Below, piece by piece: positions 3,666 to 37,488 of a stretch of 64,000 bases of DNA. Where the stretch lies: positions 88,155 to 152,154 of the forward strand of contig CAZYAB010000002.1 of the NCBI GenBank assembly GCA_964645705.1, in the 5' to 3' direction. Every line of letters starts with the position of its first letter. Position 1 is the stretch's first letter. A model generated the notes under the pieces. It ran no database searches and was not told the origin of the DNA. It was given only the letters and a program-made list of their open reading frames with translations. Made by a program: the position numbers and the translations under genes. This DNA comes from an uncultured Methanosarcinales archaeon (GTDB lineage Archaea > Nanobdellota > Nanobdellia > Woesearchaeales > CAXGTL01).

Positions 3666-4562
3666 TCAATCATCAAACTTTAATGTAAATATGTCGCCAT
3701 ATAAAGAATTCAATAATCTTGCTAGATTATGAAAATGAATAGTTGCTTTATTAACTTTTTTTGTTAATTTTATCTTATTCTTTAATCTATAAGTCATTAT
3801 AGAGTGTTCTTTGTACTTATTCACGTCATATTTATAGAATAATTCATGTGCTGCTCTTAGAATCTCTGTTATTTTATTTCTAAGTTTTCTACCTCTGTTT
3901 CTTGAACTAATATTTGAACAAAAATCTAATAATAACCACCTAAATTCATCAGATATTTTTTCTAGTCTGTCTAAAATTAAGTAATAAAGGTGGGTTTTTT
4001 TAAATTCAATGTGTCCTTTTTTCATGAGTATTCTTTGACAATAATTAATTAATTTCTTTATGTTTTTGTCTAAGGACTTTACTTGAATAGCATCAGCTTT
4101 GGCTTCTGAAAGTTCGATCAATAAAAGTAGTATTCTTCTAAATACAACTTTAAAATCTTCTTCTGATTCTTTTGTTATTTCTTTTATTATTATGTATTCA
4201 TTTTTTTGCTCAACTATTTCACAACCTATTAATTTTTGTTCTATTATCTCTATAATCCTTGACAATACTTTATTGTCGATAAAACTAATTTTTATTTCAT
4301 CAACACCTGCTCTATAGAGTCCTTGGAGAACCTTGATAATAGATCCAGCATAATCCTCAGAATTGATATTGTGTCTTTTTTGTGGTCCTTTGTGTGAAGA
4401 AATAATTATCTTATCACCAACTATGTCTAATTCGATTTTTCTTACTTTATCTAATCCTTCTTGTTTAACCCATTCTATTGGTAATGTCACTGTGTATGAT
4501 TTTCTTTTCTTTGGTCCTTGGGCTGTTAATTTCTTTTCCATATTCATTAGATATATTGCCAA
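3666..4562 (-). CDS. AbrB-PhoU type regulator paralog 2
   Basis: N-terminus 'KSYTVTLPIEWVKQEGLDKVRKIELDIVGDKIIISS', AbrB-like. The C-terminus has the same architecture as 1279-2211. Confidence 0.45.
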   Translation of the reverse strand: MAIYLMNMEKKLTAQGPKKRKSYTVTLPIEWVKQEGLDKVRKIELDIVGDKIIISSHKGPQKRHNINSEDYAGSIIKVLQGLYRAGVDEIKISFIDNKVLSRIIEIIEQKLIGCEIVEQKNEYIIIKEITKESEEDFKVVFRRILLLLIELSEAKADAIQVKSLDKNIKKLINYCQRILMKKGHIEFKKTHLYYLILDRLEKISDEFRWLLLDFCSNISSRNRGRKLRNKITEILRAAHELFYKYDVNKYKEHSIMTYRLKNKIKLTKKVNKATIHFHNLARLLNSLYGDIFTLKFDD

Positions 4563-5697: not shown

Positions 5698-6468
5698 ATG
5701 AAAATAGCAAAAGGATTGTATGACGTGATTTTTAATAATTTTAAACCTAAAGCAAAATCACATGCTTGTACTGGCAGAATCCCTGATTATACAGAAGTAA
5801 TGGAAAGATTGAATTGGGGAAGAAAAGACGAACAATTCGAAATAAACAAAGCATTTTCACAGCCAATATATGAATCATTAGAGGCAATGCTTGGCAATTC
5901 TGTGAATAAGTATGGTTCCAGAAGAAAGATTGCTGAACTAGATGCATCACTATCAATGAACAGGTTTGGTTTTGATGGTTATGCTAGACAAGTTAGAGAT
6001 GTTCAAGAAGGAACAAAAGATTTCATGGTACACGGAAGTACAAATAAGTTAGGATATCATTTGTTGATAGATAATGATAATATTGAACTTTTGGTAGAAT
6101 ATAAAAAAGATAAAAACCCAGAAATCTTTATTTTCAATAGAAATAATCTAAATGATCGTTTACATTTTAGACTTGCTAAAGATGGTTCTGTTAATGTAGT
6201 TAATTCTTCAGGCATGACATGTGGACAAGCACTCAAAGTCTTCGAAGCTTACAAACCATTCTTGATAAAACTAAAACAAAACAAGAATTTCAAAGATTTA
6301 TACAAAAAAGATGAAGATGAAGAAAAAAATCATGCACTTGCAGCTTATCTAGATGAAGCACAAATCATGAAAGAAAAAATGGAGCTTAAGAAAAGGAAAA
6401 ATGAAAGAGAAAAATACCCAAAACATGTTTACACAAGCCCTAAGCAAATTAAAATCAATTTTAAATAA
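5698..6468 (+). CDS. hypothetical protein. Its stop lies 19 nt upstream of the ARC ATPase start, so it is possibly the first gene of the Pup-like operon
   Basis: ORF with an AGAGG RBS. No recognisable motifs. Confidence 0.45.
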   Translation: MKIAKGLYDVIFNNFKPKAKSHACTGRIPDYTEVMERLNWGRKDEQFEINKAFSQPIYESLEAMLGNSVNKYGSRRKIAELDASLSMNRFGFDGYARQVRDVQEGTKDFMVHGSTNKLGYHLLIDNDNIELLVEYKKDKNPEIFIFNRNNLNDRLHFRLAKDGSVNVVNSSGMTCGQALKVFEAYKPFLIKLKQNKNFKDLYKKDEDEEKNHALAAYLDEAQIMKEKMELKKRKNEREKYPKHVYTSPKQIKINFK

Positions 6469-6487
6469 AGAACAAGGAGGATTAAAA

Positions 6488-8047
6488 ATGACTGATGAAG
6501 AAAATATAATAAATATTGGTGAAACAATAAATAGACCTGATTTAAGACAAAGGCAACCAGATTTAGCACAACAAAACCTGGCGTTAAAAGATAGGCTAGG
6601 AAAATTCGAACTTTTAGCACACAAACAAAGAGAAAAGCTAGAAGAAGCACAAGCATTTGTTCAAAAAGTTTTATCACCGCCGCACACATTAGCAACATTG
6701 CTAAATTTTAATGAAGAAGTTGCTCAGGTTGTTATGGATAATGGACAAAAATTTGAAGTTAATTATATAAACGAATTATTAGAAAATTTTGAAAAAGGTC
6801 AAAGAGTTTACCTAAACCCGCAATCATTATCAATTGTAAAAATAAAAGACAAAGAAAATCATGGTTATTGTGCTGTTATTGACGATGTATTAGAAGACAG
6901 GGTTAAGATAACTATAGATGGCAGACAAAGACTGATTGACAAAGGCAATAATGGTGTAAACATAGGTGACACTGTGATTGTTGACGCATCATTGTCAATG
7001 GTATTAGAAGGACTTGGTAAACAAAGTAAAGATTATTCTGTAAACAAGATTGAAGAAGTAAGATGGGATATGATTGGTGGTTTGGATTATGCTGTTAATG
7101 ATATAATGAAGATAATTGAAGAACCATTTTTGCATAAAGAAACATATCAAAGATACGGACTTAGCATTCCAAAAGGAATATTGCTTCATGGTCCGCCTAG
7201 ATGTGGTAAGACAATGATTGCAAAAGCAGTTGCTTATTCATTGCAAGAAAAACTTAGACAAGAATCAGAAAACCCTGATCTAAAAGGAACTTTCTTTAGT
7301 ATAAAAGGACCAGAATTCCTTAGCAAATGGGTTGGTGAAGGAGAACGTATGGTAAGAGAATTATTTGATAGAGCAAGACAAGCTTCATATGAACACCAAG
7401 GAATGCCGACTATAATCTTTTTTGATGAAGCAGAATCCTCATTCAAGAAAAGAGGATCAGACATGTCAGCGCATTACATGGATCCATTGATAAACACATT
7501 TTTAGCTGAAATGGATGGTATGAATGGTTCAGATAACTTGATCTGGATCTTGGCAACTAATAGAGCAGACCTAATGGACCCTGCAATTTTAGGCCCTGGA
7601 AGAATAGATAAAAAGATCTATATTGGTAGGCCTGACAAAAAAGCATGCCAAGCAATATTCGAGATCTATCTAAAGAATGTCCCATTATATAATTCACATA
7701 CAATCGAACAGATTGCTGAACATGCTGCATCAGAATTATTCAGTGACAAGAGAAAAATTGCACAAGTTGATTTTGTAGATGGAATGAAAGATTTTATGCA
7801 TTATAGAGACATTGTAAGCGGAGCTCTTGTTAAATCAGTTGTTGACAATGCAATCAGGTATGCAATTGAAAGAGATATTGCGAATGGTGAAAGAGGAATC
7901 AAGCAAGAAGATTTGCTAAGAGCAATTGATGAAGTAATAAAAGCAGATGAAAAGGTTTTGCCAAGCATGATTCTTAAAGATGATATTGAGAACAAGTTTG
8001 GTAAGAGGTTCCAATATATCCAAGGAATCAATCCGTATAGCGGATAG
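6488..8047 (+). CDS. arc: ARC/Mpa-like proteasome-associated AAA+ ATPase (N-terminal coiled coil, tandem OB region, AAA module)
   Basis: 'GILLHGPPRCGKTMIAKAVA' (Walker A); 'FFSIKGPEFLSKWVGEGERMVRELFDRAR'; 'IIFFDEAESSF' (Walker B); 'ILATNRADLMDPAILGPGRID'. Near-collinear with Mpa/ARC. Strong GGAGG at 6475. The start is taken at M30 of the track ORF. Confidence 0.85.
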   Translation: MTDEENIINIGETINRPDLRQRQPDLAQQNLALKDRLGKFELLAHKQREKLEEAQAFVQKVLSPPHTLATLLNFNEEVAQVVMDNGQKFEVNYINELLENFEKGQRVYLNPQSLSIVKIKDKENHGYCAVIDDVLEDRVKITIDGRQRLIDKGNNGVNIGDTVIVDASLSMVLEGLGKQSKDYSVNKIEEVRWDMIGGLDYAVNDIMKIIEEPFLHKETYQRYGLSIPKGILLHGPPRCGKTMIAKAVAYSLQEKLRQESENPDLKGTFFSIKGPEFLSKWVGEGERMVRELFDRARQASYEHQGMPTIIFFDEAESSFKKRGSDMSAHYMDPLINTFLAEMDGMNGSDNLIWILATNRADLMDPAILGPGRIDKKIYIGRPDKKACQAIFEIYLKNVPLYNSHTIEQIAEHAASELFSDKRKIAQVDFVDGMKDFMHYRDIVSGALVKSVVDNAIRYAIERDIANGERGIKQEDLLRAIDEVIKADEKVLPSMILKDDIENKFGKRFQYIQGINPYSG

Positions 8048-8065: not shown

Positions 8066-11000
8066 ATGGCAATAAAGAGGACAATTGGATCTGAAACAGA
8101 ATATGGTATTTTAGGCACTGCAAAGACTGTTAGTCAATACACTTTAGCAGACAGAGTTGTTGATGCATATATAAGAGGACAAAATCATTTTAATAGTGGC
8201 GATACTAATGAATCTGTTATAGAAGATATGACTGATGATGGACACGTAGGTGGTGACTATGGTGCTGGCAGGTCAATAAGTGTTGGTGCAAGTGGTGCAT
8301 ATCCTGCATCAAGCGGATGGGGAAGAAACTATGATTATGGTTATCAAGGAACTCATGTTGCTTACAGAACTACTTATGTGGCTCCTGCAACAACATGTGC
8401 TAGTCATGATGTTAGCAAGATGATTGAAAATGGTTCAAGATTCTATGTTGACATGGGCCATCCAGAATTATCAACACCAGAATGTGCTGGTGCTGTTGAA
8501 TTCGTAATATATGATAAAGCAGGTGAAGTAATAGTTAACCAAGCAGCTAAAAAAGCATCAAACCCAAGAAACAAGATAACTATATTTAAGAATAATTCAG
8601 ATGGAAAAGGAAAATCATTTGGATGTCATGAAAATTATCTAATGCAAAGAATGACTCAGCAAGAATTTGCTAATAAATTAGCTCCAATACTGATTCCATT
8701 TTTTGTTACAAGACAGATCTTTACAGGTTCTGGTAAAATTGGTGTTGAAAAGCCAAGTGGACAAGGTGGAATAGAACATTATAGAAGAGACATATTAAAA
8801 GATTTTGAAATCCTGAGAACACATTTTATTGGTTTAGAAGATGAATATTCAATTGTTAGAAATAATATCCATGATTTGTTTAAATTATATGATAAAAGAG
8901 TAGGAAGTCAACAAGAAATATTTCAATTATCACAAAGAGCTGATTTTATGGAATGTAGGATTGGTCTTCAGACAACATACGATAGACCATTGGTTAATAC
9001 AAGAGATGAACCTCATGCTGATAAAGAAAAATATATGCGTCTTCACGTTATAGTTGGAGATGCAAACATGTCAGAGATAGCTGATTATCTAAAAGTTGGT
9101 ACAACATCACTTGTTTTGGATTTGATAGAAGATAATTTGTTTCAACCATTTCAATTAATGGATCCTGTTACAGCTATTAAATCAATTTCAAGAGACCAAA
9201 GCATGAAATGGATAACATCATTAAAAAATGGAAAAACTGTTTCAGCAATTGACATACAAAGATGGTACCTTGCTGCTGCTAAAAATAATTATGCAGGTAG
9301 AGACGAAATAACAGATGATATTCTTGCTAGATGGGAATATGTTTTAGACACACTAGAAAAAGATCCAATGGAATTATCTGGATGGGTAGACTGGGTCTTG
9401 AAAAAAGCAATGATCCAAGATTATATGGTAAAAAATCAAGTTCCTATTAATGATCCTGCTGTAAAAAACTTAGCATTACAATTTCATGATGTTGACAGAG
9501 AAACTAGTTTGTTCTACCTAATGCAAAGAAAAGGTTTTTCAGAAAGGTTAATTTCAGATGAACAAATACTAAATGCAGTTAATAATCCTCCAGAAAACAC
9601 TCGTGCATATTTCAGAGGAATGTGGTTAAAGAAATATGATATTGATAGAGCTGACTGGGGTGAACTAGAACTAACTGTAAATGGAACAAAAGTAGACATT
9701 AACATTGACGATCCCTTCAAAGGAACTAAAAAAGATTATGAAACATTGTTTGAGAAATGTGCAAATGCAGAAGAAGCTGTTGAAGAACTTAAGAAAGAAG
9801 AATATGATGTAACAGTTGATGAAAAAACACAGTCATGGGTTTCAAGAGGAATTGGTTTTGTTAAGAATAAGATAACTGGCAAAGGTAAGAAAAAAGCAAA
9901 GTCAAAAAAGAAATCAACAAAGAAAACAGCAAAAGTAAAGAGTGCAAAAGAACTAGCAACAGACCTACAAACAAAATCAGTAAAACAAAGACAATTAGAA
10001 ATACTTGATAACAGAACAAGTCCTGGAAGACAGATTGGTCAAACAAGTAGACAGCTTAGTTTTAATGATGTTGACGAACTTAGTGATAAGGTTATGGAAC
10101 AAGCTGAAAATGATTATGTCAGGTTTCATGACAATGAACTAGTCAGGTCAGAGTATGAAGCTTTAAGGGATATTGCATTACAATACTATAACAAACCTGT
10201 TGAAGAAATTTTTTGGAATATAGGATATGAAGAATATGGTAGCTATATTAGAATTGAAGGAAGGCATGTTGTTCAATTAAATTTAAGATATCAAAATTTA
10301 GTAGAGATCCCAGAACAAATAACTAGTTTTAACAAATTAAGGCATTTGGATTTAGAAGGTAATGAAATAACAGAAGTCAGTTATGTCGCAGATTTAGAAG
10401 AATTAACATACATTGATTTACAGGGAAATCCTATAGATGTTTATAAAAGTGCAGATGTGTTGAATGAATTGCATAAAAGGGAAGTAAGAATTCGTCCTCC
10501 AAAACTAGTTGATGAACTCTGTGATCTTAATTTAGAAGATTCTGTGTCAGCAGATGGTAAAGAAGTTTATGAGTTTAATGGAGAATTATTTGTTATTACA
10601 GATGAAAAAGAACAACCACAACCATCAGAACTCGACGAAACACAAGACGACATAAGCGACGTAGTCGAAGCTGTAATTTGTGGTGGTGCTGTAGGTAATG
10701 GCAATGTTGGCGTCATAGACGTAGGCGGTGACACTGTATATTTTCATGACAGAGAATTAGTTAGAGAAGAGTATGAGGCATTAGAAGATTTAGCACAACA
10801 ATATTTTGACAAAAGTGCTGATGAATATTTTAGCACAGATCTTCGTATATTAGATCCTAATTGTTTTGTTGACATTACCAATAGTCATGTAGCATGCATA
10901 ATGTTGTGTGATACAGGTTTAGAAGAAATCCCTGAACAAATTTCAAAGTTAAGCAAATTATTAAGACTTCACATTGGATACAATAAAATTTCAGATATTG

Positions 11001-11116
11001 AGTGTACTGATCAATTAAAATCACTTGATATTTTTGGTATAACTGACAATCCACTTAATGCTAAATCAAAAACAATAGTTGATTTACTAGATAAGAGTGG
11101 TGTTAATATAATTTAA
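8066..11116 (+). CDS. Pup ligase/deamidase family (PafA/Dop-like) paralog 1 (Dop-like by gene order). It has a K-rich linker and a C-terminal duplicated module containing leucine-rich repeats
   Basis: 'MAIKRTIGSETEYG', 'GCHENYLM', 'FFVTRQIFTGSGKIG', 'LKVGTTSLVLDLIED', 'RDEITDDILARWEYVLD'. LRRs: 'LRHLDLEGNEITEVSYVADLEELTYIDLQGNPI', 'LLRLHIGYNKISDIE'. Confidence 0.85.
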   Translation: MAIKRTIGSETEYGILGTAKTVSQYTLADRVVDAYIRGQNHFNSGDTNESVIEDMTDDGHVGGDYGAGRSISVGASGAYPASSGWGRNYDYGYQGTHVAYRTTYVAPATTCASHDVSKMIENGSRFYVDMGHPELSTPECAGAVEFVIYDKAGEVIVNQAAKKASNPRNKITIFKNNSDGKGKSFGCHENYLMQRMTQQEFANKLAPILIPFFVTRQIFTGSGKIGVEKPSGQGGIEHYRRDILKDFEILRTHFIGLEDEYSIVRNNIHDLFKLYDKRVGSQQEIFQLSQRADFMECRIGLQTTYDRPLVNTRDEPHADKEKYMRLHVIVGDANMSEIADYLKVGTTSLVLDLIEDNLFQPFQLMDPVTAIKSISRDQSMKWITSLKNGKTVSAIDIQRWYLAAAKNNYAGRDEITDDILARWEYVLDTLEKDPMELSGWVDWVLKKAMIQDYMVKNQVPINDPAVKNLALQFHDVDRETSLFYLMQRKGFSERLISDEQILNAVNNPPENTRAYFRGMWLKKYDIDRADWGELELTVNGTKVDINIDDPFKGTKKDYETLFEKCANAEEAVEELKKEEYDVTVDEKTQSWVSRGIGFVKNKITGKGKKKAKSKKKSTKKTAKVKSAKELATDLQTKSVKQRQLEILDNRTSPGRQIGQTSRQLSFNDVDELSDKVMEQAENDYVRFHDNELVRSEYEALRDIALQYYNKPVEEIFWNIGYEEYGSYIRIEGRHVVQLNLRYQNLVEIPEQITSFNKLRHLDLEGNEITEVSYVADLEELTYIDLQGNPIDVYKSADVLNELHKREVRIRPPKLVDELCDLNLEDSVSADGKEVYEFNGELFVITDEKEQPQPSELDETQDDISDVVEAVICGGAVGNGNVGVIDVGGDTVYFHDRELVREEYEALEDLAQQYFDKSADEYFSTDLRILDPNCFVDITNSHVACIMLCDTGLEEIPEQISKLSKLLRLHIGYNKISDIECTDQLKSLDIFGITDNPLNAKSKTIVDLLDKSGVNII

Positions 11117-11137
11117 AACACATGGAGGTATAAAAAA

Positions 11138-11308
11138 ATGGCAGAACAAAAATTCAAAAAGTTCAGACCACTGAACGAAGTAAAAGCAGACCAAAAACCA
11201 AAGTATGAGGTTAAAGCGCCAAACTTCGATGGTGTAATGGATGAAATGGATTATCTGATTAACAAAGATAATCTAGAAAAGAATTACAAGCAAACAAGCG
11301 CAGAGTAG
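11138..11308 (+). CDS. Pup-like small protein modifier candidate (56 aa, MAEQKFKKFRPLNEVKADQKPKYEVKAPNFDGVMDEMDYLINKDNLEKNYKQTSAE)
   Basis: GGAGG 9 nt upstream. It sits where pup lies in the actinobacterial arc-dop-pup order. The C-terminal half ('DGVMDEMDYLINKDN') resembles the Pup 'DDLLDEIDDVLEEN' Mpa-binding helix, and the terminal residue is Glu. Not in the ORF track (<60 aa). Confidence 0.45.
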   Translation: MAEQKFKKFRPLNEVKADQKPKYEVKAPNFDGVMDEMDYLINKDNLEKNYKQTSAE

Positions 11309-11321: not shown

Positions 11322-11342
11322 TGTTTTTTTTATTTTTTTTTA
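11322..11342 (+). terminator. oligo-T tract (TTTTTTTTATTTTTTTTT) immediately after the Pup-like ORF. Candidate archaeal intrinsic terminator or attenuator
   Basis: A 19-nt T-run interrupted by a single A, 14 nt after the stop codon. Confidence 0.3.
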
Positions 11343-11372: not shown

Positions 11373-13472
11373 ATGAAAATGCCAAGACTAGAGAAAAGAA
11401 TAATAGGACTTGAAACAAAGTATGGATTCATGCGGAGAGAATCAGATAGTCGCGACTCTGATGACATTAATCTTTTGTTAAAAAGGATTGCAGAAAATGC
11501 ACAATCAATATATGGCAGAGAATTCATAGAAAATGGCGGAAGAATAGTATCTGGTGATTATTATATCAAATACTGTACACCTGAAACATCTAACCCTGTT
11601 GACTTGGTAATATATGATAAAGCAGGAGAAGAAATTATTAGTCAAAACAGTGATGGTATGAGGTTTGTAAAAGATAAAACAGGAGGAACTCAAAGTGCTT
11701 TTTCCTGCCATGAGAATTATTTAATAAGAAAAGTAAGAACAGATAGAGAAGGTTTTATGCATGATCTGGGAAAATACCTTTTAGGATTTTTAATAACAAG
11801 ACAGATATTTTCAGGACCAGGAGACATTTATGGTAGTGAATTTGTTTTGTCTCAAAACATAATGCAGGGTTTAAATGAATATGACCTTGATTCAAAACAA
11901 TATTCAATAATGAATCTTAATTATAGAAAACCACCTATTGATTCAGACAAATACAGCATGTTGCATATTACATTAAACAAAGCAAATTTATCAGAAATAG
12001 CAACATATCTCAAAGTAGGCACAACAAGCTTGGTATTGGATTTAATAGAAGATGATCTGTGTCCTTTGATAACAATAATTAACCCTTCAGAAACTGCAAA
12101 AGATATTTCAAAAGACCAAACATATCAGTGGGAAGTTTTTACAGATTATGAAGAATCAACAACTGCAATCAACATACAAAGACAATATCTAGAAGCAGCA
12201 AAACAAGCATACACAGGAAGAGACGAAATAACAGATGATATTCTTGCTAGATGGGAATATGTTTTAGATTGTCTAGAAGAAGATCCAATGCAATTAACAG
12301 GCTGGATTGACTGGATAACAAAAAGAGCATTGATTGACAATATTTTTGAAAAACAAGACCCAGAAGTAATAGATTTTACAGTACAAAAAATAGATGAAGA
12401 ACAAGAAAAAATCAAAGCCCTAGAACAAGAAATACAAGACGTGATAAATGATTTTGATAATTCACAAGATACAAATGTGTTTCAAAAACTAAGCTCAATA
12501 AAAGACATACTCGAGATTATGAAAGACGGTGTTTATAGACAAAACAGAGGATTTAAAGCAGGTTTACAAGGAATCTTAAATGAAAGATCAAAGACAGTGA
12601 AAAAGATTATATCTAATTATCCAAGGATAAAAAAAGATGAAAGCTTGTTTTATACATTACAAAACAAAGAATTAGTTGACAGATTAATAACAGATGAACA
12701 AATACAGCAAGCCATGAATGAACCACCAAAAGACACAAGAGCTTGGATCAGAGGAAACATAATAAAATCATTCATGGAAAACCCAGATGACTTGACCAAA
12801 GTAGAATGGGACTGTGTTAAGATAAATGGTAAATACTTGCCTTTTAAAAATCCATTTTCAAACCCTGTAAGGTTCAGAGAAGTTTTACCTAGACACGCGT
12901 ATTCTGAATTTGAAGATAAGATCTTAGAACAATTAGATGATTTTATTCAGATCATAAGACAGAATAATGACACAGAATTTGCAGCACACGTAAAATATGA
13001 TTTATACACTGAAATATTAAAAAATTCTGTATTTAATCATGAATTTTTAGAACAAGAACTAGACATAGACAAACCACCTGAACTTGTTGTAGGTGAAAGA
13101 ATAAAACTATATAGAAATCTTGGAACATTAAATTGCGGATCAAGTAATACTTATTTTTATGATGGAAGTGTTGAAGATATCCCATTGGGTTCAACAGGAG
13201 TAATTGAAAAAATAAGATATATATTTTCAGATCTAAAGATAAAAGTAAACTTGGACAATGGAAGATCATGGTGGCTGGATTCAAGAGAATTAATGCCATT
13301 AGCAGATGAATCAATAACAATAGATAATATTATTCATCAAACATTGTTTGGAGATATTCAAGATCTGAGAGGAACTCAAAGAGAGAGAACATATCTTGAG
13401 AGAAAAAAAGAATTAGATAATTTACTCACTAAGATTATAATAAATTACCTGGATGATATAAATGAGGCTTGA
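11373..13472 (+). CDS. PafA/Dop-like paralog 2, with a variant active-site motif (LETKYG instead of ETEYG) and a ~250-aa C-terminal extension of unknown fold
   Basis: 'RLEKRIIGLETKYG', 'SCHENYLI', 'FLITRQIFSGPGDI', 'LKVGTTSLVLDLIED', 'RDEITDDILARWEYVLD'. Confidence 0.8.
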   Translation: MKMPRLEKRIIGLETKYGFMRRESDSRDSDDINLLLKRIAENAQSIYGREFIENGGRIVSGDYYIKYCTPETSNPVDLVIYDKAGEEIISQNSDGMRFVKDKTGGTQSAFSCHENYLIRKVRTDREGFMHDLGKYLLGFLITRQIFSGPGDIYGSEFVLSQNIMQGLNEYDLDSKQYSIMNLNYRKPPIDSDKYSMLHITLNKANLSEIATYLKVGTTSLVLDLIEDDLCPLITIINPSETAKDISKDQTYQWEVFTDYEESTTAINIQRQYLEAAKQAYTGRDEITDDILARWEYVLDCLEEDPMQLTGWIDWITKRALIDNIFEKQDPEVIDFTVQKIDEEQEKIKALEQEIQDVINDFDNSQDTNVFQKLSSIKDILEIMKDGVYRQNRGFKAGLQGILNERSKTVKKIISNYPRIKKDESLFYTLQNKELVDRLITDEQIQQAMNEPPKDTRAWIRGNIIKSFMENPDDLTKVEWDCVKINGKYLPFKNPFSNPVRFREVLPRHAYSEFEDKILEQLDDFIQIIRQNNDTEFAAHVKYDLYTEILKNSVFNHEFLEQELDIDKPPELVVGERIKLYRNLGTLNCGSSNTYFYDGSVEDIPLGSTGVIEKIRYIFSDLKIKVNLDNGRSWWLDSRELMPLADESITIDNIIHQTLFGDIQDLRGTQRERTYLERKKELDNLLTKIIINYLDDINEA

Positions 13473-15084
13473 GAAAAGAATAATTGGACTTGAAACAGAG
13501 TATGGATCATTTTCACAAGATTTAGCTAGATCAAGGGATGGTGAGGATGGTCACCATGATGCACACAATAACAGACTAATAGAAACAATAAGAGAAGCAA
13601 GACCAAGAAGCGGAAACTCTTTTTTATTAAATGGTGGAAGAATGTATGAAGATTGTGGCCATATTGAATATTGTACACCAGAAACAACTAATCCTGTTGA
13701 CTTGGTTTTATATGAAAAAGCAGGAGAAAGATTGCTTAACCAGCATTCAAGAGGAGTTATGTTTATCAAGAACAATGTTGCTGCAAATAACAGTACATTT
13801 GGATGTCATGAAAATTATTTAATCAAAAGGCCTGAACATTTTATAAATGAAGTAGGAAGATATCTAATGTCATTCCTAGTAACAAGACAAATCTATGCAG
13901 GAACAGGAGATATTTATGAGAATAAATTTAGAATATCACAAAAATCAAGATTTATTACCGAAAACTATGGTAAAAATACAACCAGAGATAGACCAATAAT
14001 CAATCTAAAAGATGAATCTCATTGCGGTGGTAAAGAAAGCGAGAATTATAGATTACATCTTATATTAGGCGATTCAAATTTATCAGAAATAGCAACTTAT
14101 CTAAAAGTAGGTACAACAAGCTTAGTATTGGATTTGATTGAAGATGGAATTTGCCCTTACATTAGTTTATACAATCCTGTTTATGCTCTTCATGAGATTT
14201 CACAAGACTTGACATTTAAGATAGAAAATAAAATAAATGATTCCAGACCAATGACAGCAATCAACATACAAAGACAATATCTAAAAGCAGCAAAAAAAGC
14301 ATACACAGGAAGAGACGAGATTACTGACGATATTCTTGCTAGATGGGAATATGTTCTGGATTGTTTAGAAACAGATCCAATGAAACTTGACACATGGATT
14401 GATTGGGTTATAAAGAAAAGCTTGATTGATAAAAGTCTTGATAAGAATAGTAATTTTAGTGAAACAATTAGAAAAGAATTAGTTAATTTACAACAAAAAA
14501 TAGCATCCGCATATCAAAAAATATCAGAATCAAAAACATTATTATTACCAGATAACCAAATAATCAGAGCAGATAATTTACTTATTCAAGCAATGTCTAG
14601 TATTACGAACATAATTGATGAAGATGTTTATTCACCTATTAAAGAATTTGTAAATGGTAGAAATTTTGAAGAGTTTGATGTAAACAAGATATCAAAAAAT
14701 ATTTCATACAAATATCATAGTACTGATCCTAATAATAGTTTATTTTATTTTTTACAAAACAATGGCATGATTGACAGACTAGTATCAGATGAACAAATAA
14801 CGCATGCTGTAAATAATCCTCCTCAAGACACAAGAGCTTGGGTCAGAGCAAAAATTTTGTCAGAAATAAGAGGATTAGGAGGATCAGTAGAACAAATGGA
14901 TTGGTCAGCGATCAGTGTTTATCATCCTAATCTTAGTGGTGGAAGAGTTATGAAACCTAAATGTGCTAGATGCAGTGCAGACTGTAAAGGTTATGTTAAT
15001 TCAAATGGAAAAGAGTTTGATCTTACAGATCCTTTTGACAATAAAAAACAAGAATATGAAGAAATGGTTAGAGACATTCGTTAG
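13462..15084 (+). CDS. PafA/Dop-like paralog 3 (canonical ETEYG). Overlaps paralog 2 by 11 nt and has a short Cys-containing tail
   Basis: 'MRLEKRIIGLETEYG', 'GCHENYLI', 'FLVTRQIYAGTGDI', 'RDEITDDILARWEYVLD'. The tail is 'CARCSADCKG'. Confidence 0.8.
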   Translation: MRLEKRIIGLETEYGSFSQDLARSRDGEDGHHDAHNNRLIETIREARPRSGNSFLLNGGRMYEDCGHIEYCTPETTNPVDLVLYEKAGERLLNQHSRGVMFIKNNVAANNSTFGCHENYLIKRPEHFINEVGRYLMSFLVTRQIYAGTGDIYENKFRISQKSRFITENYGKNTTRDRPIINLKDESHCGGKESENYRLHLILGDSNLSEIATYLKVGTTSLVLDLIEDGICPYISLYNPVYALHEISQDLTFKIENKINDSRPMTAINIQRQYLKAAKKAYTGRDEITDDILARWEYVLDCLETDPMKLDTWIDWVIKKSLIDKSLDKNSNFSETIRKELVNLQQKIASAYQKISESKTLLLPDNQIIRADNLLIQAMSSITNIIDEDVYSPIKEFVNGRNFEEFDVNKISKNISYKYHSTDPNNSLFYFLQNNGMIDRLVSDEQITHAVNNPPQDTRAWVRAKILSEIRGLGGSVEQMDWSAISVYHPNLSGGRVMKPKCARCSADCKGYVNSNGKEFDLTDPFDNKKQEYEEMVRDIR

Positions 15085-15126: not shown

Positions 15127-16599
15127 TTGGGCTATGTAAAAATGGAAAATAATAAAGACAATGAAATGACTGAAAAAGAAAAAAAAGATTTTCTTAGAGG
15201 TATGACTAAAAGGCATATTGAGCAATCATTTGAAATGATGGAATCAATGGGAATGCCATTAGATTACGCACTTGCTATTTTTGCAGATACAACTAGGTTC
15301 TTAGAAAGAGATAATTCACCTGAATTTGAAAAGTTTTTAGAATATTCAGGACAAATATTTGAAAATGAGTTTCATGTAAAATGTTCTTATCATCATGCAG
15401 AGAATGTTCCTCCTTATGAATTTAGACCTGCGTCTGTTGAATATACTAACATATTGTTTCAATTATATGAACAATATTCTAATCAAGAATATGAATCAGA
15501 ACAAGAATTAACAGATATAATGAAAAATATTCTCAGTGGAAAAAAAATATTAGAAATAGGTTGTGGTCCTGGGTTTTTTCTACCTATTTTAAAAAGACTT
15601 GGTGCACAAGCACATGGAATAGAGGTTTGTGAAGATAATAAAGACAAAGTTCCTGATGTAGATATTGTTTATACTGATGCAGAGAATTTAGAGTCAATAC
15701 TCGGCGAGGAGAAATTTGATATAATCATATCAAAAGACGTATTTTGTGGTGTTGTTTTAAAAAAAGACAAAGCATATTCTATATTAGAAAATGCTTATAA
15801 TAAATTAAAAAAAAACGGAATTATAATCAATCAGATAGATTACAAGAGAATGGAACTTTCTTTTTATTTCATGAGGCAGAAAATGATTTGTAATGATCTA
15901 AATTATGATTTTGACAGAATGCTAGATAATTGGTTTTATGAAATGAGTGAAGAAGAGCAAGAAGAAATGCTTCATGTTAATTCACCTAGTTTAACAGAGG
16001 ATGAAATAAAAAAAATAGGTTATGAAGTCATGAGAAAAGAAAATGATGAGAACTTAACAACAATAATGAAAAAACAAACAAACAAAAAACTTGACCAAAA
16101 TCTTGAAGATTTCTTGATTAAAAATTCATTTGATGAAGTTAATCACTGTTTTTTACAATTTTCATCTCACTTAGATATAGATAAAATATTAGAAGAATAT
16201 GATGAAAACGGAAAATATGATGTATATTTTGATAATATTCATGAGATCGGATCATTTGTATTTGATTGTAGAAGGAATTTGTGTGAATTTTATTTTAAAG
16301 ATGACATGAAATCTAAGATATTTTTATACCAATTTCATGAAAAAGACATGGGTTATCATCTGATTGGAATCAATATTGGAGACAAAGACAAATTAAATGA
16401 TTTTGTAAAGGATTTTGTTGACATTATCAAACCAAAGCTAAAATTAAGCTCAGAACATAATCAAGAAATAGCAAAACATTCATTTGAATTTGCAGCAAGC
16501 CAGTACAGGCTTTCTAAATGTCTTTTTAATTCATTTCCTGATGAGAGATTTAGAATACTCAGTTATTCAAACATACTTAATTGTGCTCAGGTGTATTAA
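15127..16599 (+). CDS. SAM-dependent methyltransferase (class I motif I 'ILEIGCGPGFF') with an extra C-terminal domain
   Basis: Glycine-rich motif I followed by an acidic residue ('GIEV'). Confidence 0.6.
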   Translation: MGYVKMENNKDNEMTEKEKKDFLRGMTKRHIEQSFEMMESMGMPLDYALAIFADTTRFLERDNSPEFEKFLEYSGQIFENEFHVKCSYHHAENVPPYEFRPASVEYTNILFQLYEQYSNQEYESEQELTDIMKNILSGKKILEIGCGPGFFLPILKRLGAQAHGIEVCEDNKDKVPDVDIVYTDAENLESILGEEKFDIIISKDVFCGVVLKKDKAYSILENAYNKLKKNGIIINQIDYKRMELSFYFMRQKMICNDLNYDFDRMLDNWFYEMSEEEQEEMLHVNSPSLTEDEIKKIGYEVMRKENDENLTTIMKKQTNKKLDQNLEDFLIKNSFDEVNHCFLQFSSHLDIDKILEEYDENGKYDVYFDNIHEIGSFVFDCRRNLCEFYFKDDMKSKIFLYQFHEKDMGYHLIGINIGDKDKLNDFVKDFVDIIKPKLKLSSEHNQEIAKHSFEFAASQYRLSKCLFNSFPDERFRILSYSNILNCAQVY

Positions 16600-16679: not shown

Positions 16680-17636
16680 ATGAAAAATAAAGACAAGAAA
16701 ACAATACTAATAGTAGACGATGATGAACAAGTAAGAGAAAATCTTGTTAAAGCAGCTGAAGCTCTTGATTTAGAAGTAACTGCTGCTGGAGATGGTCCTA
16801 CTGCAAAAGCATTAGCACTGAGTTGCGATTTTGACATTGCTGTTCTTGACAAGGATTTCCCCTATATAGATAATCATGTATTTAAGAATGCTGGAAATAA
16901 GATTGCAGCAATATTAAAGGAAAAGAATCCAGATATAAAACTCGCAGGATTAACATTAGGACAAGTTTCAGAGTTTTCAGAAGAATTCTTTGACATAAAA
17001 GAAAGTAAACAAACTATAAGACAAAAAGACTACAATACTTTAATCAGGACTTTATTAAATCCTTATGAAAAAAATCTAGTTACAATAAGAAAACAATACT
17101 CTGAGGCAGAGAGGTTATTCCAAGAAAGTTTTGAAGCATATCAATGTATTTCAATACTTTGCGAAGGTTATGATGTATTTACAAAAGTATTGAATAAAGA
17201 ATCTTTAGGTAGCGATTATGCGGAAATAGAACACTTGGTATCACCAGCAGTTTCTAGAAATACCAGTCATCCAACAAATATGTTAAATCTAGAAGATATT
17301 TTTAATAAAGAAACCACAGGAGATGACATACTAAGAGAAGATGGTTCTGTAAAAACACCTTATGAATTTATTTGTGAAGAAACAGATGAATTCATAGATT
17401 ATGTTGAAGAAAATTTTTCAGAATACAATAATAGAGTAATCCTATTATTAGAAAAAATAAAAGAGTTTAGACATGATAAAAACATTAAACAATTTTTTAA
17501 AGAGGTTCAAGAAAAGGATTTTGAAAGTATCAATAAAAAAAAATTTTATCAACCATTGGTTCAAATGATTAGAGATTATCATGCAAACAGCTACGGAATA
17601 CTAAATATTGTGAAAGAGGAATTAGAACATGAATAG
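16680..17636 (+). CDS. CheY-like receiver (REC) domain protein with an uncharacterised C-terminal domain
   Basis: 'KKTILIVDDDEQVRENL...DFDIAVLD' carries the acidic pocket and phospho-acceptor Asp pattern. Confidence 0.55.
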   Translation: MKNKDKKTILIVDDDEQVRENLVKAAEALDLEVTAAGDGPTAKALALSCDFDIAVLDKDFPYIDNHVFKNAGNKIAAILKEKNPDIKLAGLTLGQVSEFSEEFFDIKESKQTIRQKDYNTLIRTLLNPYEKNLVTIRKQYSEAERLFQESFEAYQCISILCEGYDVFTKVLNKESLGSDYAEIEHLVSPAVSRNTSHPTNMLNLEDIFNKETTGDDILREDGSVKTPYEFICEETDEFIDYVEENFSEYNNRVILLLEKIKEFRHDKNIKQFFKEVQEKDFESINKKKFYQPLVQMIRDYHANSYGILNIVKEELEHE

Positions 17637-20527: not shown

Positions 20528-22747
20528 ATGAATACAACTTCAGAACAAAAATCCTCAACATCTCATCTTGAAGGATTTTTAAGAAAAATAGATCAACTTA
20601 GTATTTTACAAACTCCTGCTAATGAACTTAGAGATTATGATCCTGAACTTGAAGAAACTAATGAAGACTTGCTTAGACAAGAAGCATCTGAATTAGAAAG
20701 AAAAGTATCTGAATTATTAGAACTTGAACCTAATTCTAAAGATATTGCAACATATATTATAAAAAATGGTCTAGATCCAGAATTATTCATGGATTTGATT
20801 GAACAAAAATATACTGATTTTAAAACATTAAAAGGGGGTAATAGCAGGTCTTGTTTTGAAGCAAAATGGGGTGCTCATGAATTAGTTTTCAAATTTGATG
20901 TTTTGCATGATTATGATAATGATGATAATAGGGGCGGAACAAACATAGATGAAATAGAAGCATTATTACACTTGCCCGATCCAGAATTACATAACATAGT
21001 TGAGATGAAGGGTTTTATTGATCTAACAAAATATAATGGAAAAGGTTATTTAACTATTGAAAAAAAGTTTGATGGTGTTTCTTTATTTGATTATGTTCAA
21101 GAACATGGACCACTATCTGCAAAACAATTTGAACAATTAGTTCCAGAAGTTTTAAAAGCACTTAGTCATTCATATGCAAAAGAATACAAAGGCAGACCAA
21201 AACCACAGATTCTTCACAGAGATTTTCATGCAGGAAACATACTTATAAAGTGTGAGTATAATGAAAACATAAATCCAATTTTTCGTGATGAAAGTGTACT
21301 TTGGGTTCGTGGTAGTGAAGACATAAAAGAAGTTAGAATAACAGATTTTGCAACAGCTTCAAAAAGCGAAGATTTAGAATCTAAGACAGAACAAAGCGTT
21401 ACAATACATGCTTTATCAATACAAGATCCATTATTAAGTTATACTTTTACAAGAAAAGAAACAAAATATTCCCCAGCTTCACAACTTTATGAACTAGGTG
21501 TTGATCTTTATTATTCTTTGACAAAAAGATCAATATTTACATTTAATTCAAAACAAAAGATTGCAGAAGTTAAAAAGACTGGTGAAAGTTTATTGAACGA
21601 AGACGGAACATTGAACATAGATCTTTATGAAAAAGCATTAGATAATGCTTTAGACAAACTTCCAGATGAAGTAAAAGCATATAAAGATATATTATTTAAT
21701 CTTTTAAGCTTAAAACAAAGAGTAGATGATCCAGAAATAAACCCTAATTATGATTCTGAAAATCCTTTTGATGATTTAATTGAAGATTTTAAACAAACAA
21801 AACAACTCAATTATGATGCTAATCTTGCTAAAATTAGAGAAAAGGCAGAAAAGGATAAATTAGAGTTAGAAAATATAACAAAACCAATATATGAAAAACA
21901 ACCTTTTTACAAAAGATTATTAGGAAATAAGTTTGCACTTGCAACTGGCGCGCTTGGTTTGATAGGATTGTTAGTGTTTGGAAGAGGCATGTATGCTGGT
22001 AAAGAAACAAAAGTTTTTGAACATCCGCCAATTGCAGCACAAACAGAAAAACAACCAGAAGAACAACAAGAAGAAAACATGCCAATTGCCGAACAACCAG
22101 CACAACCAGAAGAAAACATAATACCAGAACAAATAAGAGAACCAGAACAAGAAAATAAAAAACCACAAATGAATACACAAAAATTAAGTCTTGAAAACAA
22201 GATTCAAAATGGTGCTTATGTTGATGTTAATAATGGTGATTGGAGATATGTAAAGAGTTATTTTGATTATGATTTGCAAACTAATTTAAATAAGCATCAA
22301 CACAAATCTAATGGTACTATAATTGATGTCACTGATCTTAATATTGTGAAAGATACTTTTATTCCAACAGCAGTTAATGAGATTAAAAACAATGCTTATG
22401 TTGATGTTAAGAATAGTGATTGGAAATATGTAAAGAGTTATTTTGATTATGATTTGCAAACTAATTTAAATAAGCATCAACACAAATCTAATGGTACTAT
22501 AATTGATGTCACTGATCTTAATATTGTGAAAGATACTTTTATTCCAACAGGAGTTAATGAGATTAAAGAGCACGCATATATTGATACTAAGAATGGTGAT
22601 TGGAAACCTGTAAAGAATTATTTTGATTATGATTTTAATACTCATTTATACAAGTATCAGCACAAAGAAAATGGTTCTATAATTGAAGTTACTGATCTTA
22701 ATATTGTGAAAAGATTTACAATACCAACTAATGTAACTGCAAACTAA
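20528..22747 (+). CDS. membrane-anchored Hanks-type (eukaryotic-like) protein kinase domain protein. It has an N-terminal kinase, one TM helix, a P/E/Q-rich linker and three tandem ~60-aa C-terminal repeats
   Basis: 'ILHRDFHAGNILIK' (catalytic loop HRD...N), 'ITDFATAS' (DFG-like), Gly-rich 'LKGGNSRSCFEA', 'VFKF'. The TM helix is 'FALATGALGLIGLLVFG'. Confidence 0.6.
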   Translation: MNTTSEQKSSTSHLEGFLRKIDQLSILQTPANELRDYDPELEETNEDLLRQEASELERKVSELLELEPNSKDIATYIIKNGLDPELFMDLIEQKYTDFKTLKGGNSRSCFEAKWGAHELVFKFDVLHDYDNDDNRGGTNIDEIEALLHLPDPELHNIVEMKGFIDLTKYNGKGYLTIEKKFDGVSLFDYVQEHGPLSAKQFEQLVPEVLKALSHSYAKEYKGRPKPQILHRDFHAGNILIKCEYNENINPIFRDESVLWVRGSEDIKEVRITDFATASKSEDLESKTEQSVTIHALSIQDPLLSYTFTRKETKYSPASQLYELGVDLYYSLTKRSIFTFNSKQKIAEVKKTGESLLNEDGTLNIDLYEKALDNALDKLPDEVKAYKDILFNLLSLKQRVDDPEINPNYDSENPFDDLIEDFKQTKQLNYDANLAKIREKAEKDKLELENITKPIYEKQPFYKRLLGNKFALATGALGLIGLLVFGRGMYAGKETKVFEHPPIAAQTEKQPEEQQEENMPIAEQPAQPEENIIPEQIREPEQENKKPQMNTQKLSLENKIQNGAYVDVNNGDWRYVKSYFDYDLQTNLNKHQHKSNGTIIDVTDLNIVKDTFIPTAVNEIKNNAYVDVKNSDWKYVKSYFDYDLQTNLNKHQHKSNGTIIDVTDLNIVKDTFIPTGVNEIKEHAYIDTKNGDWKPVKNYFDYDFNTHLYKYQHKENGSIIEVTDLNIVKRFTIPTNVTAN
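22201..22740 (+). repeat. 3 x 180-bp direct tandem repeat inside the kinase gene (copies 1 and 2 near-identical, copy 3 diverged)
   Basis: Lines 22261-22320 and 22441-22500 are identical. The period is exactly 180 nt. Confidence 0.85.
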
Positions 22748-23661
22748 CTCTTAATTATACCAATCAATGCACTGCTGCAATGATAAAACATTCTTATTGT
22801 ATTAATTAAATAATGAATTACAGGTTTTTCATTGTCTTTTTTAGAATCAAGGCTTTTTATGCCAAACTTGAATGCATAAGTAGTCTCAATGTTATGTATG
22901 TCTTTAACAATATTCAAATCTTTTGTAACATAAAGTGAATGTAATTTATCTAATTGTTCTTTAGAAGCTTTTAATAGTTTTCTGATGTCTGAATTCATTT
23001 TTATCTTGTTTCTATAAACATGATCATTAAGAAAACCAAGATTTCTTACTGCGAGTGTTATGTTTGATAAGAATAACCAATAAATAGGTGCAAGTTTAGT
23101 AGAAAATAGACCTTTTGAAATACATCTTCTTAAGAAATTAGCATATTTATGAACACTTATTGCAAGTTCTTCTGCTTCTTTGAATTCTTGTCTTTTCCTT
23201 TTTGTGATATTGGTTTCTAATATTCTTATTATTTCTTTTAAAATAAAGAATTCTTTGTTAATTATAGTATTAAAATTCTCAATACTTGGCTCTGTTATTG
23301 ATTCTATAACGCAATCTTTGTCAGATCTTGATTTTATGTCAAAACCTATGATTCCTGTTTCAACTGTTTTTTTGATTGTTTTTAGTGCTTTTTTATCTTC
23401 AAATTTAATAGTAATTTTGTCATATCCTTGCCTGTAAAGGTTGACAATCACTCTTCGTATGATGCTCTGTTCTGATATTGGCAATTTAACTGTTGTTTCT
23501 AATCTTTGTTTTTTTTTCTTTGACTCAATCACTAGTTTATTATTCTCTTCATCGACGTCAACTTCGTCTCCTGCTTTTAATCCAATCTTATTAATCCACT
23601 TCTTAGGAACATAGATTGTCAAGCCACCGCCTCCGCCTTGCTTGATCAATTTTCTTTTCAT
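22744..23661 (-). CDS. AbrB-PhoU type regulator paralog 3
   Basis: N-terminus 'MKRKLIKQGGGGGLTIYVPKKWINKIGLKAGDEVDV'. Collinear with 1279-2211. Confidence 0.5.
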   Translation of the reverse strand: MKRKLIKQGGGGGLTIYVPKKWINKIGLKAGDEVDVDEENNKLVIESKKKKQRLETTVKLPISEQSIIRRVIVNLYRQGYDKITIKFEDKKALKTIKKTVETGIIGFDIKSRSDKDCVIESITEPSIENFNTIINKEFFILKEIIRILETNITKRKRQEFKEAEELAISVHKYANFLRRCISKGLFSTKLAPIYWLFLSNITLAVRNLGFLNDHVYRNKIKMNSDIRKLLKASKEQLDKLHSLYVTKDLNIVKDIHNIETTYAFKFGIKSLDSKKDNEKPVIHYLINTIRMFYHCSSALIGIIKS

Positions 23662-23830: not shown

Positions 23831-24055
23831 ATGGAGATGATGACTATGTCAAGATACAAAACAAAACATACAGGCATGAAAACAATAATACTGTCTGCAA
23901 TAGGGGCATATGCACTAACTAAATTTATGTGTCCTGATTTTGATATCCTTCCTGATTTTAATTATGATAAATCAACAGAAGTGTATCAAACAAGACAAGC
24001 ACAAGAATTCCAACATCCTGTGATTGGAATCACAACTGAGCATAATAGAGGTTAA
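23831..24055 (+). CDS. small membrane protein (74 aa). First gene of a long co-directional array
   Basis: ORF containing a hydrophobic helix 'IILSAIGAYALTKFM'. Confidence 0.3.
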   Translation: MEMMTMSRYKTKHTGMKTIILSAIGAYALTKFMCPDFDILPDFNYDKSTEVYQTRQAQEFQHPVIGITTEHNRG

Positions 24056-24059
24056 TAAA

Positions 24060-24953: not shown

Positions 24954-24965
24954 GAGGTTAAGAAA

Positions 24966-36852: not shown

Positions 36853-37488
36853 TTATTCTTTTAATCTTGTATCAAGTTCTTTTTCAATAACTCTTTTAAC
36901 ACCATCTTTGGTGATTGTCAATACGTCTACTCCGTTTCCAGAAGCAATGTCTCTTTGCATTGCAGCATTCACAGATTTTAATGCAAGCTTTACTCCTTCA
37001 TCAACAGTCATAGCTTCTTTATATAATGTTTCTAAAACACCAAAAGCATAAACAGATCCTGACCCAGAACATGTGAAATCTTTGTGTTCTGATAATGATC
37101 CATCAGGAAAAATATCATAAAGAGTAAATCCAGAATTATCAACACCAGCAAACAAGAAATGAGATATTCCTGGTATTGTTGAGAACTTTCTTATGTTTTG
37201 ATAAACTAGTCCTGCTAATAAGTTAGCAGTTTCTTTAACAGTAGGATCTCTATCAACTCTAATAGATTTTAGCTTTATCTCTGCCCTTACTAGTTTAACC
37301 ATGAGCTGTATATCAGAAACAGTGCCTGCTGTTGTAAGAGCCATTTTATTAGTGATTTCGTGTATTTTTTGTTCTTTTTTATGCATTACTAAGTATCCTG
37401 CCGTTGCTCTTTTATCAGCAGCTAAAACTATTCCATCTTTACATACAATTCCTATAGTTGTAGTACCAGTTTTCAGAGTTTTTTCCAT
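36853..37488 (-). CDS. psmB: proteasome beta subunit (propeptide 'MEKTLKTG' followed by catalytic Thr1 in 'TTTIGIV')
   Basis: The N-terminus is typical of the Ntn-hydrolase 20S beta subunit ('TTTIGIVCKDGIVLAADKRAT'). Confidence 0.85.
   Translation of the reverse strand: MEKTLKTGTTTIGIVCKDGIVLAADKRATAGYLVMHKKEQKIHEITNKMALTTAGTVSDIQLMVKLVRAEIKLKSIRVDRDPTVKETANLLAGLVYQNIRKFSTIPGISHFLFAGVDNSGFTLYDIFPDGSLSEHKDFTCSGSGSVYAFGVLETLYKEAMTVDEGVKLALKSVNAAMQRDIASGNGVDVLTITKDGVKRVIEKELDTRLKE

Follow-up and report, generated by a model that had tools for sequence, protein, structure and literature searches.

Some archaea appear to carry a complete pupylation-type protein tagging system

In reviews up to 2025 pupylation is treated as a bacterial process, mainly actinobacterial and sporadic in other bacterial phyla (PMC2588565, PMC3511204, PMC6466877, PMC12288473). 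Iyer et al. (2008) defined the Pup family by its G[EQ] C-terminus, described Pup as a bihelical unit followed by an extended tail of 6-7 residues, and found pup always next to a gene of the PafA family; in actinobacterial loci prcBA also lies beside pup (PMC2588565). The PafA family consists of glutamine-synthetase/GCS-like amidoligases, whose substrates also include small peptides (PMC2588565; summarised in PMC3511204), and the conserved Asp of PafA and Dop has been proposed as catalytic base or nucleophile (PMC3511204). The ATPase Mpa binds the tag helix on its coiled coil, threads the disordered N-terminus of the tag and docks to the 20S proteasome through a GxYx tail (PMC6466877). Here we describe a locus of this kind in a stretch of 64,000 nucleotides (nt) from an uncultured archaeon (contig CAZYAB010000002.1, positions 88,155 to 152,154), the whole of which we refer to as the window. 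The element in question is an open reading frame (ORF) of 56 amino acids (aa) at window positions 11138-11308, which we compare with Pup and refer to below as the tag.

To our knowledge archaea are thought to tag proteins with beta-grasp modifiers only, and none of the literature that we searched describes Pup, PafA or Dop from an archaeon. Under the name UBact, Lehmann and colleagues in 2017 reportedly described Pup homologues from Nitrospirota, Verrucomicrobiota, Planctomycetota and further Gram-negative phyla. Going by that description, UBact resembles the tag of the window in being a Pup-type protein found outside Actinomycetota, beside PafA/Dop and Mpa homologues and with a terminal Gln or Glu, but it is bacterial whereas the window tag is archaeal. 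The archaeal modifiers SAMPs, Urm1 and those of ubiquitin type are also small tags conjugated to lysine, some of them tied to proteasomal turnover (PMC4895103, PMC4569737). They are however unrelated, having a beta-grasp fold, a C-terminal Gly-Gly and E1-type adenylation, while the window tag is predicted to be disordered and would be joined via a Glu side chain by a ligase of the glutamine-synthetase fold. The membrane-anchored Pup ligase systems of Plesiocystis and Rhodopirellula share with the window the lack of linked proteasome genes and an enzyme with an extra module; there the module is an insert of four transmembrane helices in the ligase, whereas the window has a leucine-rich repeat (LRR) on the Dop-type enzyme and also an Mpa-type ATPase (PMC2588565).

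A complete pupylation-type tagging system appears to be present in some archaea. The data directly support a tag gene that is real and conserved, its homology to Pup, a conserved gene neighbourhood, catalytic residues that are kept in some of the enzymes and lost in another, and an archaeal host.

The tag gene and its family

The ORF translates as MAEQKFKKFRPLNEVKADQKPKYEVKAPNFDGVMDEMDYLINKDNLEKNYKQTSAE and ends in YKQTSAE, with Glu56 as the last residue and without a GG. It had been picked out in a preliminary description of this DNA, and what was said there of its layout holds: the position and length are right, a strong GGAGG ribosome-binding site is present, the ORF sits between the first and second PafA/Dop-like genes (both Pup_ligase), its N-terminal half is rich in Lys (seven within the first 28 residues), it ends in SAE, a terminal Glu without GG(Q/E), and oligo-T tracts follow it (Table 1). 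The word "unannotated" used there is right in so far as the ORF has neither a name nor a Pfam domain, but it had already been called by the gene callers in NCBI, JGI, ENA and Logan.

Searched by itself, the ORF has no match in Pfam or NCBIfam at an expectation value (E) of 10 or below. Apart from the ORF itself, a word-indexed search of 5.8 billion proteins gave nothing, and an exhaustive phmmer search over 1.84 billion representatives gave just one AHNAK-type repeat protein, which we judged to be a spurious match and set aside. Related loci were reached by searching with the neighbouring ligase and reading the contigs on which its closest relatives lie. All six of these contigs (L007, L010, L013, L014, L102 and L103, the last without the ATPase flank) have the order AAA ATPase, Pup_ligase, small ORF, Pup_ligase. 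L100 came from a metagenome scan and P0127 from a protein search, giving with the window a family of nine distinct small proteins. In all nine loci the small ORF directly follows the Dop-type gene and precedes a Pup-ligase paralogue that lacks the Dop-type loop. A gene for an Mpa-type AAA ATPase lies upstream in every locus except L103, where the contig begins just 5' of the Dop-type gene. The loci span a content of guanine plus cytosine (GC) of 30% to 52%, the window lying at 30%.

The family members are 56-86 aa long (57-86 for the relatives of the window tag). Their N-terminal halves are variable while the C-terminal half is conserved as LLDG[IV][ED]xL[IV]xKxNLxxxY[KH]Qxx[GA][QE]. A profile built from the eight other tags places the window ORF, at E 5.2e-8, ahead of all others among the 1151 stop-to-stop segments in the window, the runner-up having E 0.027, and because of this leave-one-out result we take the ORF, on sequence evidence, to be a real and conserved gene. 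That it might be a chance frame, or a fragment of the upstream gene produced by a sequencing error or by readthrough of the TAA, seems to us extremely improbable. The ORF is short, at 56 codons, and shares its reading frame with the upstream LRR gene, from which it is separated by the TAA at 11114-11116 and seven further codons. However, apart from the profile match, just three of eight loci show the in-frame layout, as many as chance would give, and the tag ORFs of L010 and L100 overlap their upstream genes in a different frame. A Shine-Dalgarno sequence, GGAGG or GGAGGT, stands 6-10 nt before the start in all nine tag genes, the ATG being conserved along with it. Six other, independent assemblies carry exactly the same sequence from 200 nt upstream of the tag to at most 200 nt beyond it, which leaves no polymorphism in ORF or flanks from which to calculate a ratio of nonsynonymous to synonymous substitution (dN/dS). 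We rejected the tag as a readthrough or fusion product of the upstream gene because it has its own Shine-Dalgarno site and ATG and is in frame no more often than by chance. The preliminary description had also considered that a frameshift correction could merge the ORF into a neighbour; the TAA is kept in the six assemblies, which together with the frequency of the in-frame layout speaks against this.

Homology to Pup becomes apparent at the level of the family. We took 56 actinobacterial Pups from beside Dop genes, in the loci of a genome scan with a Dop-type alignment, and built a hidden Markov model (HMM) from them; against this HMM the window ORF alone reaches E 0.26 and is ranked second of 1151. 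A segment at about 44296-44500 on the reverse strand scores slightly above it (E 0.15), but this is the signal-peptide/lipobox-like start (LAGSSGC) of a secreted protein with an acidic stretch and no Q/E end, and we dismissed it as chance composition. Aligned by hhalign, the nine-member family and the 56 Pups give a probability of 94.3% (P 1e-7, score 38.5, 31 columns reaching the last residue), or 92.1% when the window sequence is left out. In a control with shuffled columns (n=200) the score was 8.7 +/- 1.9 with a maximum of 14.9, so that none of the 200 reached 40% of the real score, and the reversed family alignment scored 18.5. When family profiles were searched against all PDB sequences the top five to six matches were Pup chains (E 0.013-0.17), aligned from the helix to the final residue. 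Seven family members were scanned with curated models, and one of them matches PF05639 (E 0.019) and TIGR03687 (E 0.0016), the latter being the only NCBIfam model found in that scan. The profile search against the Pup family that had been suggested in the preliminary description therefore divides, with nothing significant for the ORF alone and a strong match for the family.

The features held in common with the Pup of Actinomycetota (PF05639, TIGR03687) lie mostly in the C-terminal half. Like Pup, the window tag falls within a range of 50-90 aa, has an N-terminal half predicted to be disordered, a Y-x-Q motif seven residues from the end (shared by the tag family as a whole) and a terminal Glu. 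In the family the LLDEIDxVL helix keeps its hydrophobic register, and in the window the amphipathic helix reads GVMDEMDYLI against DLLDEIDDVL in Pup. The C-terminal half had previously been aligned by hand to the Mpa-binding helix of Pup (FDGVMDEMDYLINK with DLLDEIDDVLEE), and the same alignment was produced by the tools; in the profile alignment the register is GVMDEMDYLINK--DNLEKNYKQTSAE against DLLDEIDEVLEANAEEFVRSYVQKGGE. Many family members begin M-x-x-Q-x-Q, like the MAQEQ of Pup, the window tag itself beginning M-A-E-Q. An AlphaFold2 model of the tag, made from a six-sequence alignment and indicative only at its low confidence (predicted local distance difference test 59.5), has coil over residues 1-29, followed by helices at 30-43 and 46-49, and residues 50-56 form an extended tail. 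This predicted layout of coil, two short helices and a seven-residue tail matches the description of Pup as a bihelical unit in PMC2588565. The gene order AAA, Dop-type, tag is that of actinobacterial arc, dop and pup, with the tag gene directly after the Dop-type gene and behind that of the Mpa-type ATPase, and in all nine loci, the window included, the tag gene adjoins PafA/Dop-family genes on both sides.

All nine members end in Gln or Glu. The endings are GGQ in four, SGQ in two, SAQ in two and SAE in one, so Glu occurs in the window tag only and Gln in its eight relatives. Since the endings run from GGQ through SGQ and SAQ to an SAE unique to the window, the window protein would be the most derived member of a family in which the canonical GGQ ending persists. 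Taken together, synteny, the family profile, hhalign, the PDB matches and the curated-model match of one member bear out the earlier suggestion of a divergent Pup-like modifier, and we are highly confident that 11138-11308 is a genuine Pup-family gene. Judged by its sequence we file it as a divergent variant of Pup and not as a plain member, because it lacks the G[EQ] ending and is missed by the curated models.

Oligo-T is an archaeal transcription termination signal. It follows the tag gene in three of the nine loci (the window, L007 with T6/T7 and L102 with T7/T5) and is lacking in the other six. The T8 and T9 tracts of the window may be a partial terminator that raises the level of tag messenger RNA relative to that of the downstream genes. 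The separate high-level expression of the tag proposed in the preliminary description would be one interpretation of this tract.

Enzymes, ATPase and host

To describe the Pup-ligase enzymes we used 99 reference columns in which actinobacterial Dop and PafA are conserved to 94% or more. The enzyme upstream of the tag keeps 86 of them, including the catalytic Asp129, retains its metal or ATP ligands, and has a 112-residue insert between its ETEYG and NGxRxYxD motifs. It scores 431 bits with the Dop model TIGR03688 against 346 for PafA, and 485 against 380 bits with our own Dop and PafA HMMs. By analogy with the actinobacterial enzyme it would be a depupylase, with deamidase activity in those relatives that have a Gln-ended tag. 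The fusion to an LRR is found in the window only among the nine loci. The LRR part (10253-11116) finds its best PDB matches in Leptospira LRR proteins and in the LRRs of a Roco "Rab family protein", and is a candidate module for the recognition of substrates or partners.

The two downstream paralogues pair with one another in a neighbour-joining tree. The first of them, at 11373-13472, keeps 52 of the 99 columns and has 47 changed, with Glu replaced by Lys16, Tyr by Val59, the catalytic Asp by Gly61, His by Tyr64, Glu by Lys66 and TRDEPH by NYRKPP. As the catalytic Asp and most of the metal/ATP ligands are lost, we read it as a probable pseudoenzyme, which probably arose by tandem duplication with its neighbour and is perhaps a tag-binding adaptor or regulator. 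Its C-terminal extension of about 350 aa gives weak matches of coiled-coil type. The second paralogue, at 13462-15084, keeps Glu11, Glu13, Tyr62, Asp64, His67, Glu69, His116, Glu117 and Arg142 and 73 of the 99 columns in all. It has a PafA-like spacing of 46 residues from ETEYG to NGGRMYED, and it scores nearly equally with the Dop and PafA HMMs (324 and 306 bits). By analogy this enzyme would be the ligase, the counterpart of PafA.

The spacing between ETEYG and NGxRxYxD in actinobacterial loci is 70-89 residues in Dop, which lies 5' of pup, and 40-49 in the distal PafA. In the archaeal loci it is 76-119 residues in the upstream enzymes and 18-46 in the downstream ones. The Dop HMM exceeds the PafA HMM by 81-121 bits for the archaeal upstream enzymes, and the two are about equal for the downstream enzymes. 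The Pup-proteasome set of the window thus comprises an ATPase of Mpa type, an upstream enzyme of Dop type and a presumed ligase equidistant from Dop and PafA. The archaeal enzyme clades lie outside the actinobacterial Dop and PafA clades, in a neighbour-joining tree that is too crude to tell whether the archaeal enzymes are ancestral to the bacterial ones or derived from them.

The ATPase is matched by TIGR03689 (pup_AAA) with E 1.4e-105 and 354 bits, against 214 bits for PAN, and by Pfam AAA with E 7e-33; its best PDB match over a single stretch is Mpa (5kwa, residues 93-541, 251 bits). Homologues of it head seven of the eight loci compared. It would be both the receptor and the unfoldase for the tag, by analogy with Mpa. 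Public records give the protein as 548 aa and as 519 aa (start at 6488), and the 548-aa ORF overlaps an upstream uncharacterized ORF of 256 aa (5698-6468, +) by 68 nt, which makes the true start uncertain.

The window carries several archaeal markers, namely aCPSF1/FttA (TIGR03675, 871 bits, above the cutoff), a class-I prolyl-tRNA synthetase (ProRS) of archaeal/eukaryotic type and the beta subunit of an archaeal 20S proteasome. On the reverse strand at 34927-37488 these form a housekeeping cluster in which aCPSF1/FttA adjoins the proteasome gene and ProRS follows, and because of this cluster we assign the host, from its gene content, to the archaea. Among the related loci, L014 holds genes for ribosomal protein L34e, SecY and EMC3/TMCO1, and L007 one for a family-B polymerase. 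The proteasome gene, beside aCPSF1, is 22 kb from the tag operon and outside it, and none of the nine tag operons contains 20S proteasome genes. With this beta subunit the host owns a protease to which a Pup-type tag could deliver substrates.

Table 1. Positions of the tag operon and related features in the window
Feature	Position	Strand	Details
Mpa/ARC-type proteasomal AAA ATPase	6401..8047	+	548 aa; N-terminal helix (putative coiled coil), OB domains, AAA module
Dop-type Pup-ligase enzyme (~1-578) with C-terminal LRR (~730-1010, about 10253-11095)	8066..11116	+	1016 aa; Pup_ligase E 1e-137, LRR_8, LRR_4
Shine-Dalgarno GGAGG of the tag	11124..11128	+	9 nt 5' of ATG
Pup-family tag gene	11138..11308	+	ATG 11138, TAG 11306-11308, 56 aa
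T8 (11324-11331) and T9 (11333-11341) tracts	11324..11341	+	first T 15 nt past the tag stop
Degenerate Pup-ligase paralogue	11373..13472	+	699 aa, ~350-aa C-terminal extension; Pup_ligase E 7e-76
Loop-less Pup-ligase paralogue, core catalytic residues intact	13462..15084	+	540 aa; Pup_ligase E 3e-108
Methyltransferase	15127..16599	+	several methyltransferase-domain Pfam families; downstream of 13462-15084
Archaeal 20S proteasome beta subunit	36853..37488	-	Pfam Proteasome E 2e-51; TIGR03634 arc_protsome_B 208 bits against 76 bits for bacterial beta

A number of other genes recur near the operon. Proteins of about 300 aa with an N-terminal AbrB/MazE (SpoVT) domain are encoded in the window at 1279-2211, 3666-4562 and 22744-23661, all on the reverse strand, and stand divergently beside the ATPase gene in L007 (6646-7569, -) and L013 (3502-4422, -); this family may be a regulator of the tag system. 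In three loci Ser/Thr kinase genes lie no more than a few kb from the operon (window 20528-22747, +; L007 4869-6683; L013 238-3512), and a receiver-domain protein is encoded at 16680-17636 of the window. Three uncharacterized proteins, of about 110-120, 230-320 and 270 aa, recur directly 3' of the ligase in several of the relatives (L007 13717-15693, L100 7653-7976, L102 11003-13290, L103 4692-6683), the one of about 270 aa having a near-threshold match to Janus/Ocnus of the phosphohistidine-phosphatase family; none of the three was detected in the window. Farther from the operon the window encodes a full-length serpin (60816-62075, +; Pfam Serpin E 1e-117) and a protein at 54443-55582 (-) that joins an N6_N4_Mtase DNA methylase domain to an Mrr-type restriction endonuclease domain. 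Ten ORFs of 190-630 aa at 24024-34282 (+) and one of 1015 aa at 44491-47538 (-) have no Pfam match at the thresholds used, and no transfer RNA or Rfam family was found in the window.

Proposed mechanism and rival readings

We consider it probable that the locus is a pupylation-type operon in an archaeon and that the small protein acts as a conjugated tag. The conjugation chemistry, the roles of ligase and deconjugase, the binding by the ATPase and the delivery to the proteasome are modelled on the actinobacterial system. The 56-aa tag would be translated from its own strong Shine-Dalgarno site and, with Glu as its last residue from the start, would not have to be deamidated. The enzyme at 13462-15084 would phosphorylate the gamma-carboxylate of Glu56 with ATP and then link the tag to the epsilon-amino group of a target lysine as an isopeptide, while the Dop-type enzyme would strip the tag off again, its LRR perhaps selecting conjugates or partners. 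In the eight relatives with a Gln-ended tag the orthologous Dop-type enzyme would first convert Gln to Glu, a need that fits the position of the Dop-type gene directly upstream of the tag in all loci. The dead paralogue at 11373-13472 may bind the tag. The ATPase would bind the helix of the tag, at about residues 30-49, on its putative N-terminal coiled coil and would thread the disordered N-terminus of the tag, so that the tagged protein would be unfolded and possibly fed to the archaeal 20S proteasome. Proteasomal delivery is the weakest of these steps, and we hold it with lower confidence than the role of conjugated tag.

Several observations weigh against this reading. The single ORF is not significantly Pup-like by sequence comparison, significance being reached at the level of the family profile, and no curated Pup model in Pfam or NCBIfam matches it at E of 10 or below. 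Where Pup has G-G-[QE] the window tag has S-A-E, with Ala in place of the penultimate Gly, and its helix region is two residues shorter. It differs from Pup also in its archaeal host and in having no prcBA in the operon. By sequence the downstream "ligase" clade shows no special likeness to PafA, and in the crude neighbour-joining tree the two downstream paralogues of the window lie nearer the Dop-type clade, which together make the assignment of ligase and deconjugase uncertain; with the LRR on the Dop-type enzyme and the dead paralogue, they also set the window apart from the actinobacterial Pup system. Finally, the ATPase of the window ends in GINPYSG and not in GxYx or HbYX, and because of this ending its docking to the 20S proteasome is doubtful.

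The last point bears on a serious alternative for the final step, in which the Pup homologue is conjugated but its targets are not degraded by the proteasome. The ATPase would then be a stand-alone unfoldase or remodeller, or tagging would be regulatory, in connection with the kinases, the receiver-domain protein and the AbrB-type regulators. A stand-alone role of such an ATPase has been reported in actinobacteria without a proteasome, for example Corynebacterium. The C-termini of the ATPases are not conserved as GxYx or HbYX (PAYEV, AAYR and LYNGCKNGA occur in the relatives), the operons hold no 20S genes, and the Ser/Thr kinases and AbrB/MazE proteins recur near the operon in the window, L007 and L013. 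On the other hand the host does have an archaeal 20S beta subunit, and proteasome genes are usually dispersed across archaeal genomes, so that little can be read from their absence in the operon. A Tyr near the C-terminus of the ATPase is kept in the window, L007, L010, L013 and L100 (in L014 and L102 it is not), and the AYR with which the L013 protein ends is HbYX-like. We regard a fate independent of the proteasome as possible, though we do not expect it.

Of two further readings neither seems likely to us. The peptide could be a ribosomal precursor that is modified or cyclised by the adjacent carboxylate-amine ligases, or it could act without covalent linkage, as an adaptor or regulator of the ATPase or of the ligases. 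Amidoligase kin of PafA do use small peptides (PMC2588565, PMC3511204), a peptide-metabolite route was proposed by Iyer et al. as the evolutionary source of Pup (PMC2588565), and the window has extra paralogues, a dead one among them, with a methyltransferase gene directly downstream. An Mpa-type unfoldase with OB domains is nevertheless present wherever the upstream flank is available, which fits a protein tag and not a metabolite, the parts of Pup that bind Mpa and PafA are retained along with the terminal Gln or Glu, and the loci share no conserved transporter or peptidase of the kind found in clusters for peptide natural products; we therefore judge this reading to be improbable. We would place slightly lower still the idea of a conflict system in which infection triggers the tagging of viral or host proteins with the LRR as sensor. 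Several bacterial defence systems use ubiquitin-like conjugation, the Dop-type enzyme does bear an LRR, and toxin-antitoxin or defence-type genes neighbour some of the loci (Fic, Lit and an ABC/AAA_15-type ATPase in L007, HicA and HepT/MNT in L010, PemK in L014). However, PADLOC gives no match for the ligases or the tag and just generic similarities for AAA, kinase and methyltransferase genes, a scan of viral contigs found no relatives, and the operon of L014 stands among the housekeeping genes for SecY, L34e and phenylalanyl-tRNA synthetase.

Implications for archaeal protein tagging

A wider proposal can be built on the reading of the locus as a pupylation-type operon, although we put it forward tentatively and think it doubtful as a whole. 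Some archaea would run a complete pupylation-type pathway, made up of a disordered tag ending in Glu or Gln, a Dop-type amidase, a distinct clade of ligases and an Mpa-type unfoldase, and it would lead to the archaeal 20S proteasome by a second route that depends on neither ubiquitin nor SAMPs. Because the branches of the archaeal enzymes fall outside those of actinobacterial Dop and PafA, such a pathway might be ancient in archaea or have moved together with the proteasome between archaea and Actinomycetota, and would not be a bacterial invention. The LRR-bearing Dop-type enzyme and the dead paralogue would be E3-like specificity factors.

If this is true, archaea would gain a second and chemically distinct tagging system, and this genome would have E3-like factors for the selection of substrates that are absent from the one-ligase system of bacteria. 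Three questions could then be addressed with the sequences now at hand: the origin of the Pup-proteasome system, how its enzymes handle a tag without a Gly-Gly linker, and how specificity modules such as an LRR or a pseudo-ligase are added to a system that has a single ligase in bacteria. Tags of this kind are missed by the current Pfam and NCBIfam models and by common cutoffs on ORF length, and would thus be left systematically without a function in archaeal genomes.

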